DNA of 62,944 bases, filler included, from Globobulimina sp. (taxonomy: Eukaryota), in the NCBI GenBank assembly GCA_003354225.1. It is 53 parts of 53 records of this genome, joined end to end, with 100 filler letters (N's around TTAATTAATTAA, not from the genome) between each part and the next. Parts side by side here need not be neighbours in the genome. Positions count along the whole stretch, not along the records: positions 11,902 to 12,991 come from PIVH01023798.1; 52 more parts are not named here. One strand, given 5' to 3'. Shown in pieces: positions 1,193 to 45,209 of the stretch. The notes under the pieces were generated by a model that ran no database searches, was not told the DNA's origin, and worked only from the letters and a program-made list of their open reading frames with translations. The position numbers and the translations under genes are program-made. Position 1 is the stretch's first letter. Each line of letters starts with the position of its first letter.

Positions 1193-1960
1193 CTTAGAAA
1201 ATCAGATCGTTATAAAACTGCATTGTCAGTCAATGGACACTTATATGAATGGAATGTAATGCCAATGGGTGCCTGCAATTCGCCCTCATATTTCCAAAAG
1301 GTAATGAATTCAATATTTCATGATTTGAAATATGTGATGGTATATATTGATGATATTGCCATATTATCTCATACAGCAGCAGAGCATAAACAGCATTTGA
1401 ATGAAGTATTTAAACGGATTGAAAAATATAAAATAAAAATACGACTCGATAAATGTGCATTTGCTCAACAATCCGTACAATATTTAGGATTCAAGGTTGA
1501 TAAAAACGGAATGCATATCACTAATAATTATAAAAATAAAATACAAAATATACCAACACCGCGTAATAAAAAACAAGTGCAACGCTTTTTAGGAATGATT
1601 CAGTTTTTACATAAATTCATTCCCGACTTGCAAATTGATCTTAAACCATTCCATAAATTAACTCGAATTGGATGACGAATTGGATGTATTGTTCAATGCG
1701 ATTAAAGTCAAAATAAATAATGCCAAAATGCTTCATCATCCAGATATGACCAAACCATTTGAAGTATATTGTGACGCATCAGGTAAAGGCCTTGGAGCAG
1801 TATTGGCACAACGAGGCCATGACGGACAGTTAAAGGCAGTACAGTTTTGTAGCAAAATCTTCAATTCGACTCAAGCCAATTGGCACGTTTCTGAACAGGA
1901 AATATTTGCCGTAATATATGCAGTGGAAAAATGGATTGGCTGACTATTTAAGTCGTGATG
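1193..1960 (+). mobile_element. Ty3/Gypsy LTR retrotransposon pol fragment (RT + RNase H), disrupted by two frameshifting deletions
   Basis: RT motifs MPMGACNSP, YIDD, YLG and RFLG. RNase H motifs CDASGKGLGAVL, EQEIFAVIYAVEKW and NGLADYLSR are spread over three frames. Confidence 0.92.
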
Positions 1961-2459
1961 CATTGATGACAGTTTTGCCATTATTTGAAGAGAAACAACA
2001 TTTTAAAACGGCAAATATATTATATATATATACACAACACGTCGCTGCAGAAACATTAAAAACAAAAAACATCGGATTTATTACGCAAACAAATAATAAC
2101 AATAACACACAAGAACCGACATGTTGCATATTACAGAACATAGAAACACAGACGCTATTATTAAATAACCACGAAATGGACGTAGACAGTGGTTCTGAGT
2201 CAGAATCAGATGATAACATTAATATAAATAACACACAGCAACTACAAGCTAATAAATCCAATGATAAACCGATACCGAAACNNNNNNNNNNNNNNNNNNN
2301 NNNNNNNNNNNNNNNNNNNNNNNNNTTAATTAATTAANNNNNNNNNNNNNNNNNNNNNNNNNNNNNNNNNNNNNNNNNNNNATTTATTTATTCGAGATAA
2401 ATATTCTGACTTCGTACTTTCTGTTTCAAAATCATAATTCATGGTATTGAGAAATCTTT

Positions 2460-3017
2460 CTAAACCCAACATGAACTTCTTGTTCCTCTTGGGGATAAAT
2501 CCGATTTATTTGATAAAATTTTAATTATATTTTCAATATTTCCAATTTGCATAATGATATTTTGCACTCTTTCTCTCGCAATTCCGTCCAAATCCAATTT
2601 ATCATTTAACATCATTACAATTTTCCGCCTTGAACTTGAGAGTAATAAGTCACTTTTATTTTGGATACATGATAGATTCCGTAATTTCCAATGAAATACT
2701 TTCTGTTCTTTTGTTGTATGAATATTGTTGTTTAATAATTCTATGTCTTTCTCTTCTTCGGTATTAATATTTGAATCGCTTTGATCTTTGTTTGATTTTG
2801 CTTTTTTCGATGCGTTTTCATGCTTTTTTTGTAATTCCTCGCTGTTTCTATTCATCGCTATATAACAACCATCTGTTTTTATTAATTGCCTAAATATTAA
2901 TGATTGTGTTTCTGATAATCCAGATTGCGTAATTGTTGATTCCATAAAATCGCGATTGTTTGAACAAGATTGCTTGAACAAAGGGAGCAATCCATTGTAA
3001 AGTTTGTAAGCTGCCAT
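2460..3017 (-). CDS. Hypothetical protein fragment
   Basis: 185-aa ORF with no recognised motif. Confidence 0.35.
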   Translation of the reverse strand: MAAYKLYNGLLPLFKQSCSNNRDFMESTITQSGLSETQSLIFRQLIKTDGCYIAMNRNSEELQKKHENASKKAKSNKDQSDSNINTEEEKDIELLNNNIHTTKEQKVFHWKLRNLSCIQNKSDLLLSSSRRKIVMMLNDKLDLDGIARERVQNIIMQIGNIENIIKILSNKSDLSPRGTRSSCWV

Positions 3018-3369
3018 GATAAAATGTTAAAGATTGTAAAGCTTTTACTTAAAACTTTCTAAACATAACCTTCGTCACATTTGACGTAATTTGACAAACG
3101 TGTTACCACAACGATGGAAGATAATATTAATTGTGGCACCACATCGATGCAATATAACGATTTGCATATTATACACAAACATTCAGATCGCAAACGCAAA
3201 CCTACCAAACCATCTGAATTACTATGGGTCAGCGGTACAGCTACACAATGGAATGAAATATACAGCAATTTATGTAATAAATTAGCAAATGTCACATGTC
3301 CAAATAAAGTTGAATCCAAATTAGGTGTATTAGATAGTCTTCATTCAGACACATTGAAGAATATCATTG

Positions 3370-4972: not shown

Positions 4973-5533
4973 ATGAACAAACCAAAAGTAGTACTTAAGA
5001 AAGTAAAATATCACCAAGGTCATGAGGGAGATGGTGTTAATTGTGACGTTTGGCTAGATGGTGTTAATTGTCTTCATGTTTTAGATGATGGCAATGGTGG
5101 TGGTTTAAATATCACTGACTATGCTTATGGTAGTAAAAGACCTGACAGAGTTAAGAAACTGGTTAAAGAGTTAAATGACTTCGTTAATAGTCTACCTGAA
5201 CAAACTTTAGACTTTGGTAGTGGTAATTGTATTAAAGACGACCAAGGCAAAGATAAACTGTTTAAAATAACCTTGGAAGACTATATTAATGATATGTTAA
5301 TAGAACATCAAAAAGCAAAGGAAATGAAAAAGATGCAAAAACTTATGCAAACTTCATTTGTTATTGGTGTGCCTAATGGTGCAAGTTATTCATACATTAA
5401 TTATAAGAAACCATTGTCCAATATCCCTAAAGTTTGGCTACAAGGTAGATTAGACCATATAATTAAAAAGCATTGTACAGAGGATGCTGTTATCCTTAAC
5501 ACAAACTTAGTTGAATTAGGTTTAAAGATATAA
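4973..5533 (+). CDS. Phage hypothetical protein (Bacteroidota-phage-like)
   Basis: Complete intronless 186-aa ORF with an A-rich leader lacking an SD. N-terminal LKKVK..C-VWLDG..DDGNGG pattern resembles phage hypotheticals. Confidence 0.7.
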   Translation: MNKPKVVLKKVKYHQGHEGDGVNCDVWLDGVNCLHVLDDGNGGGLNITDYAYGSKRPDRVKKLVKELNDFVNSLPEQTLDFGSGNCIKDDQGKDKLFKITLEDYINDMLIEHQKAKEMKKMQKLMQTSFVIGVPNGASYSYINYKKPLSNIPKVWLQGRLDHIIKKHCTEDAVILNTNLVELGLKI

Positions 5534-7469: not shown

Positions 7470-7766
7470 TCAACAAAAAAACGGAAGAAAAAAAAACGTA
7501 AAAAAGAAAAAAATGGAGAAGCAAAAGAGTACAAATGTGTGGAATGTGACAGAACATTTAAGAATGCCATGGCTTTGGGCGGGCATAATTCTGCGGTACA
7601 TTCAAAAAAAAAGAAACAAAGAGAAGCAATGTTAGCATCACCATCACCATCACCACCACCAAAGGATGAGGATGTGCCTGATGTTGTAATTGTGGTTGAT
7701 GTGGCTGAGGATAATTTGGAAAATGATGATAGTGATAGAGATGTGCTTATTGTTGATTCGGATTGA
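7470..7766 (+). CDS. C2H2 zinc-finger fragment with acidic tail
   Basis: YKCVECDRTFKNAMALGGHNSAVH, in the same frame as the chromodomain but beyond TGA-GCT-TAG. Confidence 0.65.
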   Translation, partial: STKKRKKKKRKKEKNGEAKEYKCVECDRTFKNAMALGGHNSAVHSKKKKQREAMLASPSPSPPPKDEDVPDVVIVVDVAEDNLENDDSDRDVLIVDSD

Positions 7767-7968
7767 CTTTTATAGTCAAGATTTGCTGGTTTTTATTTAT
7801 TTAAGCACGATTTCCTGACGGACTGCTGCTGACCTTCGGTATTTGAGCGTTTTTGTAGACTTTATATTTAATGAAACAACTCATGTCCTTGCACACAACT
7901 GAAGTATCAACAAACTATACAAATATAAGTTACATTCTTACTACAAAAACTAGCAAAGATTGAACCAA

Positions 7969-8332: not shown

Positions 8333-9421
8333 TTAAAACTAAATAATCAAATCCTATCATATAAAACCAATGATCCAATATATAATCTCGATACAATCGA
8401 TCCCATTCCATCCCAAATCCTCGATAGATACTATCCAAAACACATAACTCCAAAATTAATAATTGATAAACAACAATCCGATCCATGGCTATATGGGATA
8501 ATCCAATATATATTAACCAATAATACCAATCTAATCCGGTCGCTTCCTAAGTATTTATATCGTTATGTATTAAACGGAAAATACATATGTAACGACAACG
8601 GATTACTATTTTATAAATATAAAGAGAACGAATATAAAATAGTTATACCTGACACTTTGCGTAAATCCATAATGAAAAACGCTCACGATTTGGTCCATAA
8701 TGGTAGCGGCAAAATGTATACTTTAATTTTGAATGATTACTGGTGGCCCAAAATGAAAACAGAGATTGTAAATTACTGCAAAACCTGTATAGGATGTCAA
8801 GCAGTAAAAGGTATACAACACAAACAAAAACGAGGAACGCTTAACTTATTTCCAGCAACGCGACCTTTTGAACAGCTTAGCGTTGATATTGTCGGTCCAC
8901 TGCCTAAAACCGACGATGACTTCCAATATTTAGTGACCATAATCGACAAATTCTCACGGTATTGTATGATAATACCAGTGAAGGATACTTTGACACCGAC
9001 CATAATACGAGCCATAGAGCGATGGTACACTACGTTCGGTCCACCGGAATCCATTCTATCTGACAATGGATCGCAATTTCTATCAAAAATATATCAACAT
9101 TTTCAGAATTCAAACAGAACAAAGATAAAATACATAACTGCCTATCACCCGGAGTGCAACGGGCAAATCGAACGACTGCATCGATGGATAAAAGAGCGTC
9201 TGGCGCTGCTTGCGCATGACTTAGGTTTGGAATTCGCGGTTGGTAAAGCTTACCAATGTCATAATTGGTCGCATTACATTCCATTGATACAATATTGCTA
9301 TAATACCATGGTAAATAGAATGACATTATATACGCCGTTTGATATCGTTTTCGGCTCAAATCCTCGAGATATGGATATATTGCGATGTGATCCAAAATGT
9401 CCTGATATATATAAGAAATAT
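8333..9421 (+). mobile_element. Ty3/Gypsy integrase (zinc-binding HHCC + rve core), partial
   Basis: AHDLVH..YWWPKM..CIGC, SVDIVGPLP, IDKFSRY, ILSDNGSQF and YHPECNGQIER (DDE). The frame is open over the whole contig. Confidence 0.95.
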
Positions 9422-9997
9422 NNNNNNNNNNNNNNNNNNNNNNNNNNNNNNNNNNNNNNNNNNNNTTAATTAATTAANNNNNNNNNNNNNNNNNNNNNNN
9501 NNNNNNNNNNNNNNNNNNNNNGCAAGAATATTACATATATATAACATGTACAGCTGATCGGGAAGAAAAGCTGCAACTAAATTGCATAAAAATATCTATA
9601 ATAAATTGAAAAAAGTAAGTTGATGGTAATAAATCACAAATGAAAAAATAAATAAGAATACCACAAATCAACACTAATAAAAAAGTAACACTAAAAAAAA
9701 TAATACGAAAAAAAATGAAATAATTAGCATGAATATCATACGGTGTGGCAGTGATAATTGACACAAATTATCAAATAGAAATTTCAGGAAATAATTCAAA
9801 CAAACGCAAACCTCGTAAAGTATATAAAAAAAAAATAATAACTATGAATGATGAATCAGAGGAAAAAAAAAGGTACAATGAACATAATTTAATGGGAAAA
9901 TGAGGAAATGTTTTATGCGAAAATGCGTATTAATACGCAATGTTTTGATACCGACGTTTAGCTCTTAATGCAGCTTTTTTTTCACCTTGTAATCGTT

Positions 9998-11801: not shown

Positions 11802-12038
11802 NNNNNNNNNNNNNNNNNNNNNNNNNNNNNNNNNNNNNNNNNNNNTTAATTAATTAANNNNNNNNNNNNNNNNNNNNNNNNNNNNNNNNNNNNNNNNNNN
11901 NTTGGTCTGGGAGTTGCCCGGTATTATGCCGTTACTGAATCCAAGGTGCTTCATGCTGCGGATAGAAACCATTCCGGTTCTGCTGTTTCCCCTGGGGGCA
12001 GCATACCGAAAAATGAAACACAATAAAGGATTTCGGGC

Positions 12039-12254
12039 ATGAAAAAAGAAGATTTCAAGCAGGCTTTAAGGAACTGTCTCAGAAGTATTGATCTTCAAAA
12101 ACGGCAGTCGTGGAATGATACAGACCTGCTCATCTGGTGGGGGGAAGTCCAAAAAAGTGCTTCTTATCTGAGATGGGATCGTGCAACTGGTGATTTATGG
12201 CAGCACGTAAAAATTATGTGTAAAGATATGATCGGTCAAAATGCAGTTTACTAA
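12039..12254 (+). CDS. Small bacterial hypothetical protein
   Basis: Complete 71-aa ORF with an AAGGA RBS. Confidence 0.75.
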   Translation: MKKEDFKQALRNCLRSIDLQKRQSWNDTDLLIWWGEVQKSASYLRWDRATGDLWQHVKIMCKDMIGQNAVY

Positions 12255-12282
12255 GTGAAACAAAATAGGGGAGAGCGAAGAG

Positions 12283-12516
12283 ATGAAAGTGAAAGAGATA
12301 ATAAAGGCTTTTGAAAAACTGGACCCTGAAAGCGATGTTCATTGTTACTCTGAAGATCCAGATTTATTTATCGGCAAACAAGGTATTTTTGAAATAGAAA
12401 ATATAACTGTAAATGACGCCGTAAGAGATCATGAAAAGGGCAACGCAACCATAGAGTTTACAAAGTCAAACAAATCAACAAAGCATGTTCTTATCAATAT
12501 AACTACTGATTTCTAA
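12283..12516 (+). CDS. Small bacterial hypothetical protein (MKVKE..DP..DV-C type)
   Basis: Complete 77-aa ORF with a GGGGAG RBS. Confidence 0.8.
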   Translation: MKVKEIIKAFEKLDPESDVHCYSEDPDLFIGKQGIFEIENITVNDAVRDHEKGNATIEFTKSNKSTKHVLINITTDF

Positions 12517-12554
12517 GGCAGCATAAAGCCTGAAACAAAATAAAGGAGTCAAAT

Positions 12555-12866
12555 ATGGATATAGAAGACATTCAAGACGGAATGGAACTTTCCGAATTAC
12601 TTCAAGAGTTATTAGATGACGGTTACATCGAACACGATGCCTCAATTGGGGTAACAAAAAAAATTATCAGCGATGGCATTGAAAGTCTTAAAGGGAATCA
12701 GATTACAGTTTATGAAAAATATATAAAATCTATTTTTAACAACCATGATACCAAATGTGGAAGATGCCAGACTACGATTGATGACTTGCCGACAAATGAA
12801 AAATTTTTCCTAATATCCCAGGGCTACTGCCCTCTGTGTGATCATAGAATGGGAAAAGATGATTAA
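12555..12866 (+). CDS. Small bacterial protein with a C-terminal CxxC...CxxC putative zinc site
   Basis: 103-aa ORF with an AAGGAG RBS; CGRC and CPLC motifs. Confidence 0.8.
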   Translation: MDIEDIQDGMELSELLQELLDDGYIEHDASIGVTKKIISDGIESLKGNQITVYEKYIKSIFNNHDTKCGRCQTTIDDLPTNEKFFLISQGYCPLCDHRMGKDD

Positions 12867-12895
12867 TTTTGCAACAAAATAGGGGAGTGGGTAAA

Positions 12896-12991
12896 TTGAA
12901 AAAAATAGTTATAATTGGGGTTTTAGTATCTTTAATTGGTATTGTTGGGGCAATTGCGGCCTTACCACCACGATACCAAAATATAAAAGAC
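12896..12991 (+). CDS. Bacterial secreted protein N-terminus (partial, TTG start)
   Basis: MKKIVIIGVLVSLIGIVGAIAA-LPPRYQNIKD looks like a signal peptide and follows a GGGGAG RBS. Confidence 0.7.
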
Positions 12992-13091
12992 NNNNNNNNN
13001 NNNNNNNNNNNNNNNNNNNNNNNNNNNNNNNNNNNTTAATTAATTAANNNNNNNNNNNNNNNNNNNNNNNNNNNNNNNNNNNNNNNNNNNN

Positions 13092-14181
13092 GTTGATATC
13101 CAATTAATCCAAATGTAAAATCCATATTTATTGCATGTATTACATATTTGCCGTACCAATTCCTGCAAATCCTTGCGATAAAAACAAGCACATTTCTTTG
13201 CCACTATGGAGCATACTGCCTTGTTGTCACAGAGTAATAGCAATGCTTTTCCACTCCATTGTGCTGGATTGATACTTAGCATTACGTATATTGCCATCAA
13301 TTCCAGATATACAATATCCGGTGGGTTTGCGTTATTCCATTCAAATAAGTCTTTGTACATTGTTCCATAATAAAATCCATCCTCTTTCATTACAATTCCT
13401 CCAATTCCGATCTTTCCCGATGCGTCAGTCTCAATTGTTACGTCGGCAGCGGCTTTATCATAGAGCAGCCATTTAAACTTAATACTGTTGTTTTGGTTGT
13501 CTTTTATTGGCCCAATCACCATTTCAATATCTCTTGCCATCTCCACTGTAATTCTTACCTTTTCGTTTGGCTCCTTTCCAGATACTGCCTCTTCCAACCT
13601 TCTTAGTGCCGGTATTATATAATAGTGTACGTAGGAAATATGCCGCGCAATTCCAATATATTCGGATATCTGCTTAGCATTTACTTCCTGTTTCTTTTTG
13701 TGCGCTGTTAAGAGCGTTGTTCCTCTCAATATCGTCTTTGATATTTTCACCATTGGTATTGCCAAGGTTTGCGTTACCAAATTCAAAATAAATCCAATCC
13801 ATATCATAATCTGTGTTGGTGTCATTAGTTTTCGTTCCTGGGTTGGTATTCCCAGCCCTTTAAACATCCATTTTATTACGTAATATTGCTGCCAACATTT
13901 CGTTTCTGTCCGATGTCCCGCAAAAAAATCGTCCAAATAATTGTGTAATATACATCTATCTCCCAAGAAAAATAAGTCCTGATATTTATTAGCAATGATC
14001 CATGCCACTGCCGATGCGAATATTGTGTAGATATTGCAACTCGATCCTCCTCCAAATACCAATGCCGTCCATAAAAAGATCCAAACTCCGATTTTCATGG
14101 CGAACCATGGTATAAATTTATTGTTTATTGGCACTCGATTGAATGCATTCTGCGCATCCGCCGAAATCATCCATTTTATTC
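13092..14181 (-). mobile_element. DIRS-type (tyrosine-recombinase) retrotransposon RT + RNase H, partial
   Basis: ISADAQNAFNRVP, LVFGGGSSC, YLDDF and WIGFILN, then RNase H motifs TDASGKIGIGG, DIVYLELMAI and CDNKAV. Confidence 0.85.
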
Positions 14182-44933: not shown

Positions 44934-45209
44934 GAAAGGTGTTGATAAAGCAGCTAAATGGTCTGAAGATAAGGTCTGTAAAAGGAGGAAATATTACCAA
45001 AGTCAGATTATATATATGTTCATATGGTTAATTTTTATTGAACCACAATCAAGGATGCAATAAAGGGGAGGCAAATTTTAAGGACACAACTTTTTCTCTA
45101 ATTATATGANNNNNNNNNNNNNNNNNNNNNNNNNNNNNNNNNNNNNNNNNNNNTTAATTAATTAANNNNNNNNNNNNNNNNNNNNNNNNNNNNNNNNNNN
45201 NNNNNNNNN

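Follow-up and report, generated by a model that had tools for sequence, protein, structure and literature searches.

What stands at the joints between small, mutually unrelated genes that follow one another in a single direction, each headed by the same short sequence? The question is raised by a contig of 1,090 bp, present in its entirety as a stand-alone piece at positions 11902-12991 of the Globobulimina sp. assembly DNA analysed here (positions 1-62944, referred to below as the window). A sequence-only reading had suggested that the repeated sequence may be the crossover scar of a gene-cassette capture system with short, non-palindromic sites that supply a ready ribosome-binding site (RBS), or that the genes are integron cassettes whose attC sites have been deleted. 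The answer reached here, which on balance we consider probable, is that the contig belongs to an integron-like cassette system whose short asymmetric sites double as stop codon and Shine-Dalgarno (SD) sequence. As the window is made up of 53 unrelated, length-sorted contigs of 1,089-1,091 bp each, set end to end with N..TTAATTAATTAA..N linkers between them, the pieces adjoining 11902-12991 give no context for it.

A pattern scan of the window finds exact matches to the motif, TGMAACAMAATARRGGA, at 12014, 12256, 12531 and 12870, all on the + strand; the sole other match, at 45039, lies outside the contig and has two mismatches. The chance expectation for both strands of the 62,944-base window is 0.44, and the observed total of five (including the two-mismatch match) was reached in none of 100 shuffles. 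Scans for open reading frames (ORFs) and for the pattern agree with the sequence-only reading that four ORFs, of 71 aa, 77 aa and 103 aa (the last with CxxC pairs) and one with a hydrophobic N-terminus, are each headed by the motif. Copy 1 (TGAAACACAATAAAGGA, 12014-12030) carries the SD for ORF1 (12039-12254), copy 2 (TGAAACAAAATAGGGGA, 12256-12272) precedes ORF2 (12283-12516), copy 3 (TGAAACAAAATAAAGGA, 12531-12547) precedes ORF3 (12555-12866) and copy 4 (TGCAACAAAATAGGGGA, 12870-12886) precedes the N-terminal part of ORF4 (12896-12991), all on the + strand and all exact matches in IUPAC terms, with the ORF start 5-15 nt past the G-run in every case. The finer observations of that reading also hold when the sequence is read again: the motif begins 1, 14 and 3 nt past the preceding stops, copy 1 includes the TAA (12024-12026) that closes an upstream frame, and an upstream extension, GGCAGCATA, is common to copies 1 and 3 (11997-12005 and 12517-12525, + strand).

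The motif is local to arrays of this kind. From 12873 to its end, over 119 bases, the window contig is identical to the first 119 of contig C478 (PIVS01000360.1, 5.2 kb) in a metagenome-assembled genome (MAG) of the Desulfobacteraceae, G001; as judged from this identity C478 carries the window array further, the strain being the same or almost so, and the two contigs combined have 12 motif copies over about 6.2 kb, every one of them on the coding strand, with the reverse strand free of them. Genome-wide counts were made in this MAG, which overlaps the window contig. In its 5.9 Mb there are 10 matches with up to one mismatch against 3 for a reversed control, clustered on three contigs and five of them on C478; with two mismatches the matches equal the control and are uninformative. 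A scan at family level gave exact matches to a 16-nt core in 13 of 151 genomes (control 7), with clusters only in G001 and two others, G051 and G074, while at the level of the order 10 of 401 genomes matched (control 9), singly everywhere except in G001. Arrays, taken as at least two clustered copies, are present in 4 of the 9 genomes of one genus, namely G001, G051, G074 and G068. The motif scan of viral contigs gave 15 single matches, which is chance level, and scans of metagenomes (at least 117 stretches) and of a genome collection (at least 121) gave, among the matches listed and leaving aside the G001 contig, single matches at chance level, from which the frequency of arrays is not readable.

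Two loci found along the way deserve brief description. Viral locus L012 at first looked like a two-copy array, but was rejected, since the two copies merely reflect duplication: they lie in the identical 3' ends of a pair of paralogous genes (1240-3010, reverse strand) for proteins built of numerous (Y/F)G(D/N/S)A(K/Q/E)V repeats. A second locus in G001 (L255, contig C368) holds a small gene and a paralogous TPR gene (85% identity) at whose end the junction motif has lost an internal part (cgaaat running directly into taggagag), as well as a gene for a secreted homologue of staphylococcal nuclease that uses the TGA of the motif as its stop.

The anatomy of the junction was derived from 31 sites gathered from ten loci, of which 30 entered the profile, one doubtful site having been dropped. 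They share a conserved block of 17 nt, T-GAAACA-R-AATA-R-GGG-A, extending from -1 to +15 with background on either side; three of its positions, T(-1) in 25/30, G(+14) in 27/30 and A(+15) in 25/30, lay outside the search pattern. No synonymous variation is seen in GAA ACA, even where these are codons (in ...ETK* or ...ETE*), which implies that what is constrained is the nucleic acid, DNA or RNA, rather than the peptide. The block offers stops in two frames (TGA and TAG/TAA), and the ORF upstream ends at the TAG/TAA of the motif at 13 of the 31 sites (giving tails such as ...ETK* and ...ETE*), at its TGA at 4 and at a stop of its own 4-25 nt upstream at 13, with no upstream ORF at the remaining one. 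Behind 9 of the 31 there is no ORF of at least 25 codons, so that the motif is not merely an RBS; it is also absent between HigB and HigA, between MazE and MazF and between a ribbon-helix-helix protein and its 60-aa partner ORF, and since such two-gene units are never split it bounds functional modules rather than acting as a signal before every gene. All array copies are in direct orientation, and the junctions are 25-40 nt long. The absence of an attC hairpin from the window contig, already pointed out in the sequence-only reading, extends to the 30 junctions tested, where the complementarity of the motif to the 130 nt upstream equals that of the control (5.3 against 5.7 nt), the mean z-score of the minimum free energy of folding is -0.54, and a search of Rfam finds no family in four array loci.

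Genes assort independently of one another, with breakpoints at the motif. Few are common to different arrays, and in four segments that are shared between arrays the similarity starts or ends at the motif, the flanks being unrelated. G051 and G074 have in common a 57-aa membrane-protein gene, 94% identical from AATAGRGGAG of one junction through ...GAATAGGGG of the next, its surroundings being unrelated in the two genomes; similarity around a 49-aa gene common to contigs G001:C123 and G051:C485 begins at the motif; and a DUF1841-like 87-aa gene, 97.6% identical in G001 and G051, follows different genes. Within C478 a Cys-rich gene is duplicated, the repeat running from 3 nt upstream of the start through the next ...AATAGGGG. 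The window contig itself was compared with assembled contigs of four sequencing runs (X2, X4, X5 and X8) from four different studies, which leave 11902-12234 and 12790-12860 without cover. The ORF2 cassette (12270-12547) recurs at 95-99% identity in X2, X5 and X8 with different flanks: upstream, similarity starts exactly at 12256, with two different upstream contigs in each run, and downstream the sequences diverge exactly at 12547, beyond which all three runs have the same foreign sequence and not ORF3. Foreign contigs have loose ends exactly at 12531, before copy 3, and at 12547, behind it, and ORF3 is found in X2 and X4 behind other upstream sequences, in one case after a variant motif, GATGAACCAAAATAGGAGAG. 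Taken together, 10 of 14 loose ends lie no more than 5 nt from an edge of the motif, a further 3 no more than 12 nt, and one inside ORF4. The suggestion in the sequence-only reading that reads be searched for a reshuffled gene order or for circles has in this way been borne out as to order, through contigs of four studies with other neighbours at the motif, while circles are not observable in contigs; the opposite outcome that it had envisaged, namely conserved synteny of these ORFs in relatives, is contradicted by shared genes that have different neighbours and break at the motif. On this comparison the cassettes appear to be independently mobile units, mobile presumably by way of circles.

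A tyrosine recombinase gene, of the kind that the sequence-only reading had proposed to look for in MAGs, is linked to the arrays. It heads, in the same orientation, all three arrays with the TGAAACA type of junction whose 5' side is known (those of G051, G074 and G068), and also an array in a further genome, G106. The G051 array contig begins with an intact gene for a protein of 206 aa (PF00589, 66.8 bits, cutoff 27.1); that of G074, on a 332-kb contig, follows a remnant whose C-terminal 41 aa are 90% identical to those of G051, and that of G068, on a 184-kb contig, comes after a copy split over three frames. Scores against the integron-integrase models (TIGR02249, 29.6 bits, cutoff 265; NF011946, 33.5, cutoff 435) and the Xer models (XerD, 60.6 bits, cutoff 329.6; XerC, 41.8, cutoff 335.15) indicate that the protein is neither IntI nor Xer, and it is, as far as its sequence tells, a catalytic domain only. 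The candidate catalytic residues R52, R154, H179 and Y188, assigned by motif pattern, are invariant in all four intact homologues, and Lys151 replaces the usual first His of HxxR.

Just past the recombinase stop lies a leader of about 90 nt (AAGCTGCCGCCCGGTGGTKGCCGTTCGTTC...CCAGGGGCGAATTTT), almost the same in four loci from three genomes (L293 713-800; L292 8831-8920; L311 about 9800-9945, reverse strand; L295 3113-3200); it is found in G051, G074 and G068, and at G051:C485 without a recombinase gene. Its role might be that of a primary insertion site or of a regulatory element acting as RNA or DNA. In G074 and G068 the leader is followed by a sigma-70-like promoter and then by the first module, the promoter-like sites as picked out by eye being TTGCTT-17-TATAAT (G074), TTGACA-17-TACTTT (G068) and, in G106, TTGACT-17-TATAAT. 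Co-oriented promoterless cassettes behind a promoter beside a recombinase gene are among the features by which integrons are recognised. Short leader-related sequences were also noticed elsewhere: CTGCCGCCCGGTAGTT after the junction motif at L293 1356, GGCCTGCCCCGGTCGG behind a G106 junction and GTTGCCCGGTA at the 5' end of the window contig, where comparison with the conserved leader gives just short islands (GCCCGGT, GCCGTT) and homology is not claimed. Upstream of the G074 array, L292 3262-8051 contains a DDE transposase, fragments of a second integrase and a truncated reverse transcriptase (PF00078), the last flanked by two related repeats of about 180 nt.

A further tie between recombinase and junctions is that the arms of palindromes before the recombinase genes match the junction motif and covary with it. 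Right before the G051 gene stands a perfect palindrome, TGAAACAAAA-cattaa-TTTTGTTTCA, with a spacer of N6, preceded by AGCATAAAG, which is related to the extension seen upstream of copies 1 and 3 in the window; its arm is identical with the 5' half of the motif, the junctions of G051 being of the form TGAAACA. The ends of contig G051:C680 (L293 1-50 and 2878-2927) resemble sequencing adapters, and presumably its true ends, including that upstream of the palindrome, are not given by the contig. In G106 the homologue (54% identity) has TTGAATCAAAA-N8-TTTTGATTCAA upstream; downstream of the gene come a promoter-like site and small genes arranged in an array, and the junctions of this array read TGAATCAAAATA(A/G)GG, that is, the TGAATCA type, together with one GAAACAAAATAG junction. 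The word GAATCAAAA occurs in 9 '+' copies within 5 kb of G106, one of them being the left arm of the palindrome, and the junction variant has 7 exact matches in the 5.2 Mb of this genome, 6 in a 3.2-kb array, against 0 for the control. Beyond the arrays, a Sedimenticola plasmid homologue (58.7% identity) has two palindromes with TGAAACA arms before the gene and no array, both of the Shewanella plasmids examined have two palindromes with TGAATCA arms and no array, and a Desulfosarcina plasmid homologue (45% identity) has a palindrome with other arms. In the sequences compared, the two arm variants of the family are the two junction variants, and arm agrees with junction in both types of array.

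Some further features of G106 were seen on the reverse strand of its locus L315. Motif pairs 33-41 nt apart lie at reverse-complement positions 3262/3303, 3705/3741 and 5993/6026; in two of the three the first copy ends in ...AAAAC, like the palindrome arm, and the second in ...AAAATAGGG, and one pair mixes the TGAATCA and TGAAACA types. A 61-aa protein (2298-2483), ribbon-helix-helix-like by eye, overlaps the end of the recombinase gene and has a paralogue within the array (4988-5164); it is a candidate for a directionality factor or regulator.

The recombinase family to which these proteins belong numbers 1,722 clusters at E <= 1e-20. Among the matches listed its members are mostly of 201-234 aa, a few reaching 277, and are named in their sources only as integrase or XerD; they occur on small plasmids and on chromosomes, including those of sediment and symbiont sulfur bacteria. 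Before four more distant members (38-42% identical recombinases; L321-L324, about 7630-7960) there are 3-5 TGAAAC(A/G) words in the 130-330 nt preceding the gene, and over seven viral-collection loci as a whole TGAAAC words are not enriched.

On the reading that we favour, the 5' half of the motif (TGAAACA and the A-run) would be one binding arm for the Xer-like tyrosine recombinase of about 206 aa, and the 3' half, AATAGGGG, would be the likely crossover region as well as a translational adaptor. The promoter behind the recombinase gene would transcribe the row of promoterless modules, which are small genes or complete toxin-antitoxin pairs. Through recombination between two direct sites a module would leave the array as a circle and could be reinserted at any other site, so that arrays become reshuffled; and because the core holds both a stop codon and an SD, any module would be shielded from the gene upstream of it and be translated at whatever site it entered. 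Binding and cutting of the junction motif by the recombinase, the circular intermediates and the working of promoter and SD are what this scheme predicts. The idea of a crossover scar with short, non-palindromic, RBS-supplying sites, put forward in the sequence-only reading, finds backing in the locality of the motif, the breakpoints at it, the toxin-antitoxin units that it leaves unsplit, the linked recombinase and the matching arms, with catalysis as the predicted element.

All this said, there are a number of points that tell against such a system. The sites were gathered with a search pattern, which inflates the conservation at positions 0-13. No recombination event has been seen directly; no joints were listed for the contigs, from which nothing follows since contigs cannot show circles, and breakpoints at an 18-nt repeat could also come from short-homology recombination. 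The recombinase gene is broken in G068 and G074 and absent beside the short arrays on G051:C485 and C196, while in the fragmented assembly of G001 there is no close homologue, the 5' side being missing for the G001 and window arrays alike. The loci are independent only in part, since every TGAAACA-type array belongs to a single genus. A simple exchange between palindrome and junction is not obvious, since the palindrome spacers differ from the 3' half of the motif and the junction has only one conserved arm; the palindrome, moreover, overlaps the RBS of the recombinase gene and may be an operator. Homologues of 50-53% identity in G128 (on a 4-kb contig) and G224 have no inverted repeat by the criteria used and no repeated junction motif, and none of seven viral-collection loci with homologues of 37-51% identity has an array, nor has any of the plasmids examined. 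It may be that the ordinary role of the family is resolution or integration at the palindrome, the arrays being a derived use in some Desulfobacteraceae.

Several of these points would suit a motif whose function is mainly regulatory or translational, either a stoperator-like operator or a module coupling stop codon and SD with an A-rich enhancer, the turnover of genes then being a by-product of homologous or illegitimate recombination; one form of this could be an operator bound by the recombinase or by another protein encoded on the element. The motif has both a stop codon and an SD, at a workable 5-17 nt from the starts, palindromes that overlap the recombinase RBS are placed as an autoregulatory operator would be, many recombinase homologues exist without arrays, and, since internal promoters and terminators are at no more than chance level in the window contig, the cassettes are probably transcribed together and in need of initiation signals of their own. 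Against this stand the 9 of 31 sites with no gene behind them, the lack of the motif inside two-gene units that need an RBS just as much, its confinement to arrays in which every copy is direct, and the very precise breakpoints seen in several genomes and in the four studies. We regard this explanation as unlikely, although it is the one to be taken most seriously after the cassette system.

Considerably less probable is a signal at the level of RNA, whether a processing site for an endoribonuclease (for instance a MazF encoded in the array) or a dedicated promoter start, giving a short-leader mRNA for each cassette. MazEF does form the first module in G068 and on G051:C196, survives as a remnant on G051:C485 and lies within the G074 array; the motif contains ACA-type words, its strict orientation matches that of transcription, and ...ATAGGGGAG has what we take to be a resemblance to the start region of promoters of phage single-subunit RNA polymerases. 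Yet no gene for such a polymerase was seen in the arrays examined, MazEF is missing from the window contig, from G001:C478 and from G106, and the palindromes in the DNA before the recombinase genes, like the covariation of arm and junction, are left unexplained.

A classical integron with deleted or decayed attC sites, the other possibility raised in the sequence-only reading, would share the co-oriented, small, promoterless genes and toxin-antitoxin cassettes behind a tyrosine recombinase and a promoter, but it must be judged very improbable indeed, given a recombinase of 206 aa that is co-oriented with the array and scores 29.6 bits against 265 for TIGR02249, and junctions of 25-40 nt that show no trace of attC in complementarity, folding z-score or Rfam family. 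That the motif, ending as it does in an SD, is no more than the usual consensus for translation initiation in the source organism, which would have undone the sequence-only reading, can practically be discounted in view of the counts in G001 (10 against 3, on three contigs, tested in the overlapping MAG rather than in the assembly of the window) and in G106 (7 against 0), and of the single two-mismatch match elsewhere in the window.

As to what the cassettes carry, homology searches of the kind originally advised gave a mixed result for the window contig, placing ORF4 in a family and leaving ORF1-3 without a known one. The 5' segment (11902-12013, + strand) may be the 3' end of a cassette gene lying further upstream or else non-coding, leader-like sequence; it is spanned by a frame open from 11904 to 12026 and ending ...NETQ*, and this 40-aa frame has no family match in Pfam or PHROG. 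Pfam, PHROG and NCBIfam yield no function for ORF1-3: ORF1 matches nothing in them, and the N-terminus of ORF2 (MKVKEIIKAFEKLDPESDV) weakly resembles the starts of several small phage protein families of unknown function (phrog_22847, E 4.2e-5; phrog_5861, E 8.2e-5). ORF3, with its two CxxC pairs, is a probable zinc ribbon and has one homologue, at 72% identity, among 5.8 billion protein clusters. ORF4, which begins with a signal or transmembrane segment and runs on into G001:C478, is about 98-102 aa long when complete and belongs to the ssr3402 family (NF052671, 119.4 bits, cutoff 90). No internal promoters or terminators above chance were found in the window contig, blastn of the contig against a phage database gave no match, and a protein-based locus search for ORF1-3 in viral contigs gave nothing usable, with one match of 15 residues. 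Besides the secreted ssr3402-family protein, the modules of C478 comprise the Cys-rich protein of 133 aa (twice), a TPR protein of 576 aa, a secreted protein of the endonuclease/exonuclease/phosphatase family, small membrane proteins and others. Many neighbouring pieces of the window are AT-rich and carry retroelement-like ORFs, unlike this bacterial contig; among them are an integrase-like ORF at 8657-9469 and an RNase H/reverse-transcriptase-like ORF at 13040-14170.

It remains to set these arrays beside systems already described. Integrons are recognised by an IntI of about 320 aa with a specific insertion, and by attC sites that are imperfect palindromes of about 57-141 nt folding into hairpins. 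The likeness lies in a tyrosine recombinase beside co-oriented, mostly promoterless, small and diverse genes (toxin-antitoxin cassettes included) under a common promoter and, particularly as regards sedentary chromosomal integrons, in junction sites that are homogeneous within a lineage while the order and context of cassettes vary. The arrays differ in having a non-IntI recombinase of 206 aa, co-oriented with the array, and no attC hairpins, but instead a 17-nt non-palindromic double-strand motif that is also stop codon and SD. Cis-mobilisable elements (CIMEs) are integrase-less, att-flanked cargo that can be stacked in tandem beside one integrase and mobilised in trans; their modules measure kilobases and their att sites tens of bases, usually at a tRNA gene or the end of a gene, whereas here the modules are single small genes and the sites are fused to translation signals. 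The start-associated sequences and stoperators of mycobacteriophages are likewise short, asymmetric motifs in one orientation at gene junctions, overlapping stops and starts, but they are regulatory and occur in conserved synteny; in the present arrays the motif is where genes assort independently of each other, and it corresponds to a recombinase site.

Two further comparisons concern short sites for tyrosine recombinases. The pdif (dif) sites are complete 28-bp XerC/XerD sites, with two conserved 11-bp arms and a 6-bp spacer, which alternate in orientation and are used by the Xer proteins of the host. According to two accounts of Acinetobacter plasmids (PMC6449649, PMC13141974), pdif modules are, as here, small units that include toxin-antitoxin pairs, bounded by short Xer-type sites and shuffled between replicons. 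The present arrays, by contrast, are chromosomal and have one conserved arm, direct repeats and a recombinase of their own. In the R64 shufflon the sfx sites have a conserved core and one conserved arm, the other arm being variable (PMC11852207), and there is again a crowd of asymmetric tyrosine-recombinase sites close together beside the recombinase gene (PMC11852207). The sfx sites, however, are inverted, with inversion of pilV segments only, and Rci is larger and has an extra C-terminal domain (PMC11852207), whereas here direct repeats separate whole genes. The sfx precedent supports the notion of a recombinase site with a conserved core and a single conserved arm (PMC11852207).

No description of attC-less cassette arrays of this kind was found in the literature, subscription journals aside, and what is new is a cassette platform of site-specific recombination that fails both of the tests that define integrons, IntI and attC. 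The chances seem to us evenly balanced that this is a new gene-capture platform, for which a small recombinase family was recruited in Desulfobacteraceae and in which the integron principle arose independently and by convergence; to the same reading, and with confidence neither above nor below one half, belongs the proposal that a 17-nt asymmetric double-strand site takes the place of attC hairpins and that a captured ORF is expressed at once.

Integrons are, to our knowledge, the only well-established general system that captures, stockpiles and reshuffles single promoterless genes by site-specific recombination. They are defined by IntI together with attC sites that fold, which is precisely what tools like IntegronFinder look for. 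If the cassette system proposed here is real, the integron strategy would have evolved more than once, from a different recombinase clade and with a short double-strand site fused to translation signals, and a short, asymmetric, directional site that brings its own stop codon and RBS would be an attractive part for synthetic operon assembly. It would also mean that anoxic sediments and symbionts hold reservoirs of cassettes that are invisible to present methods of detection.

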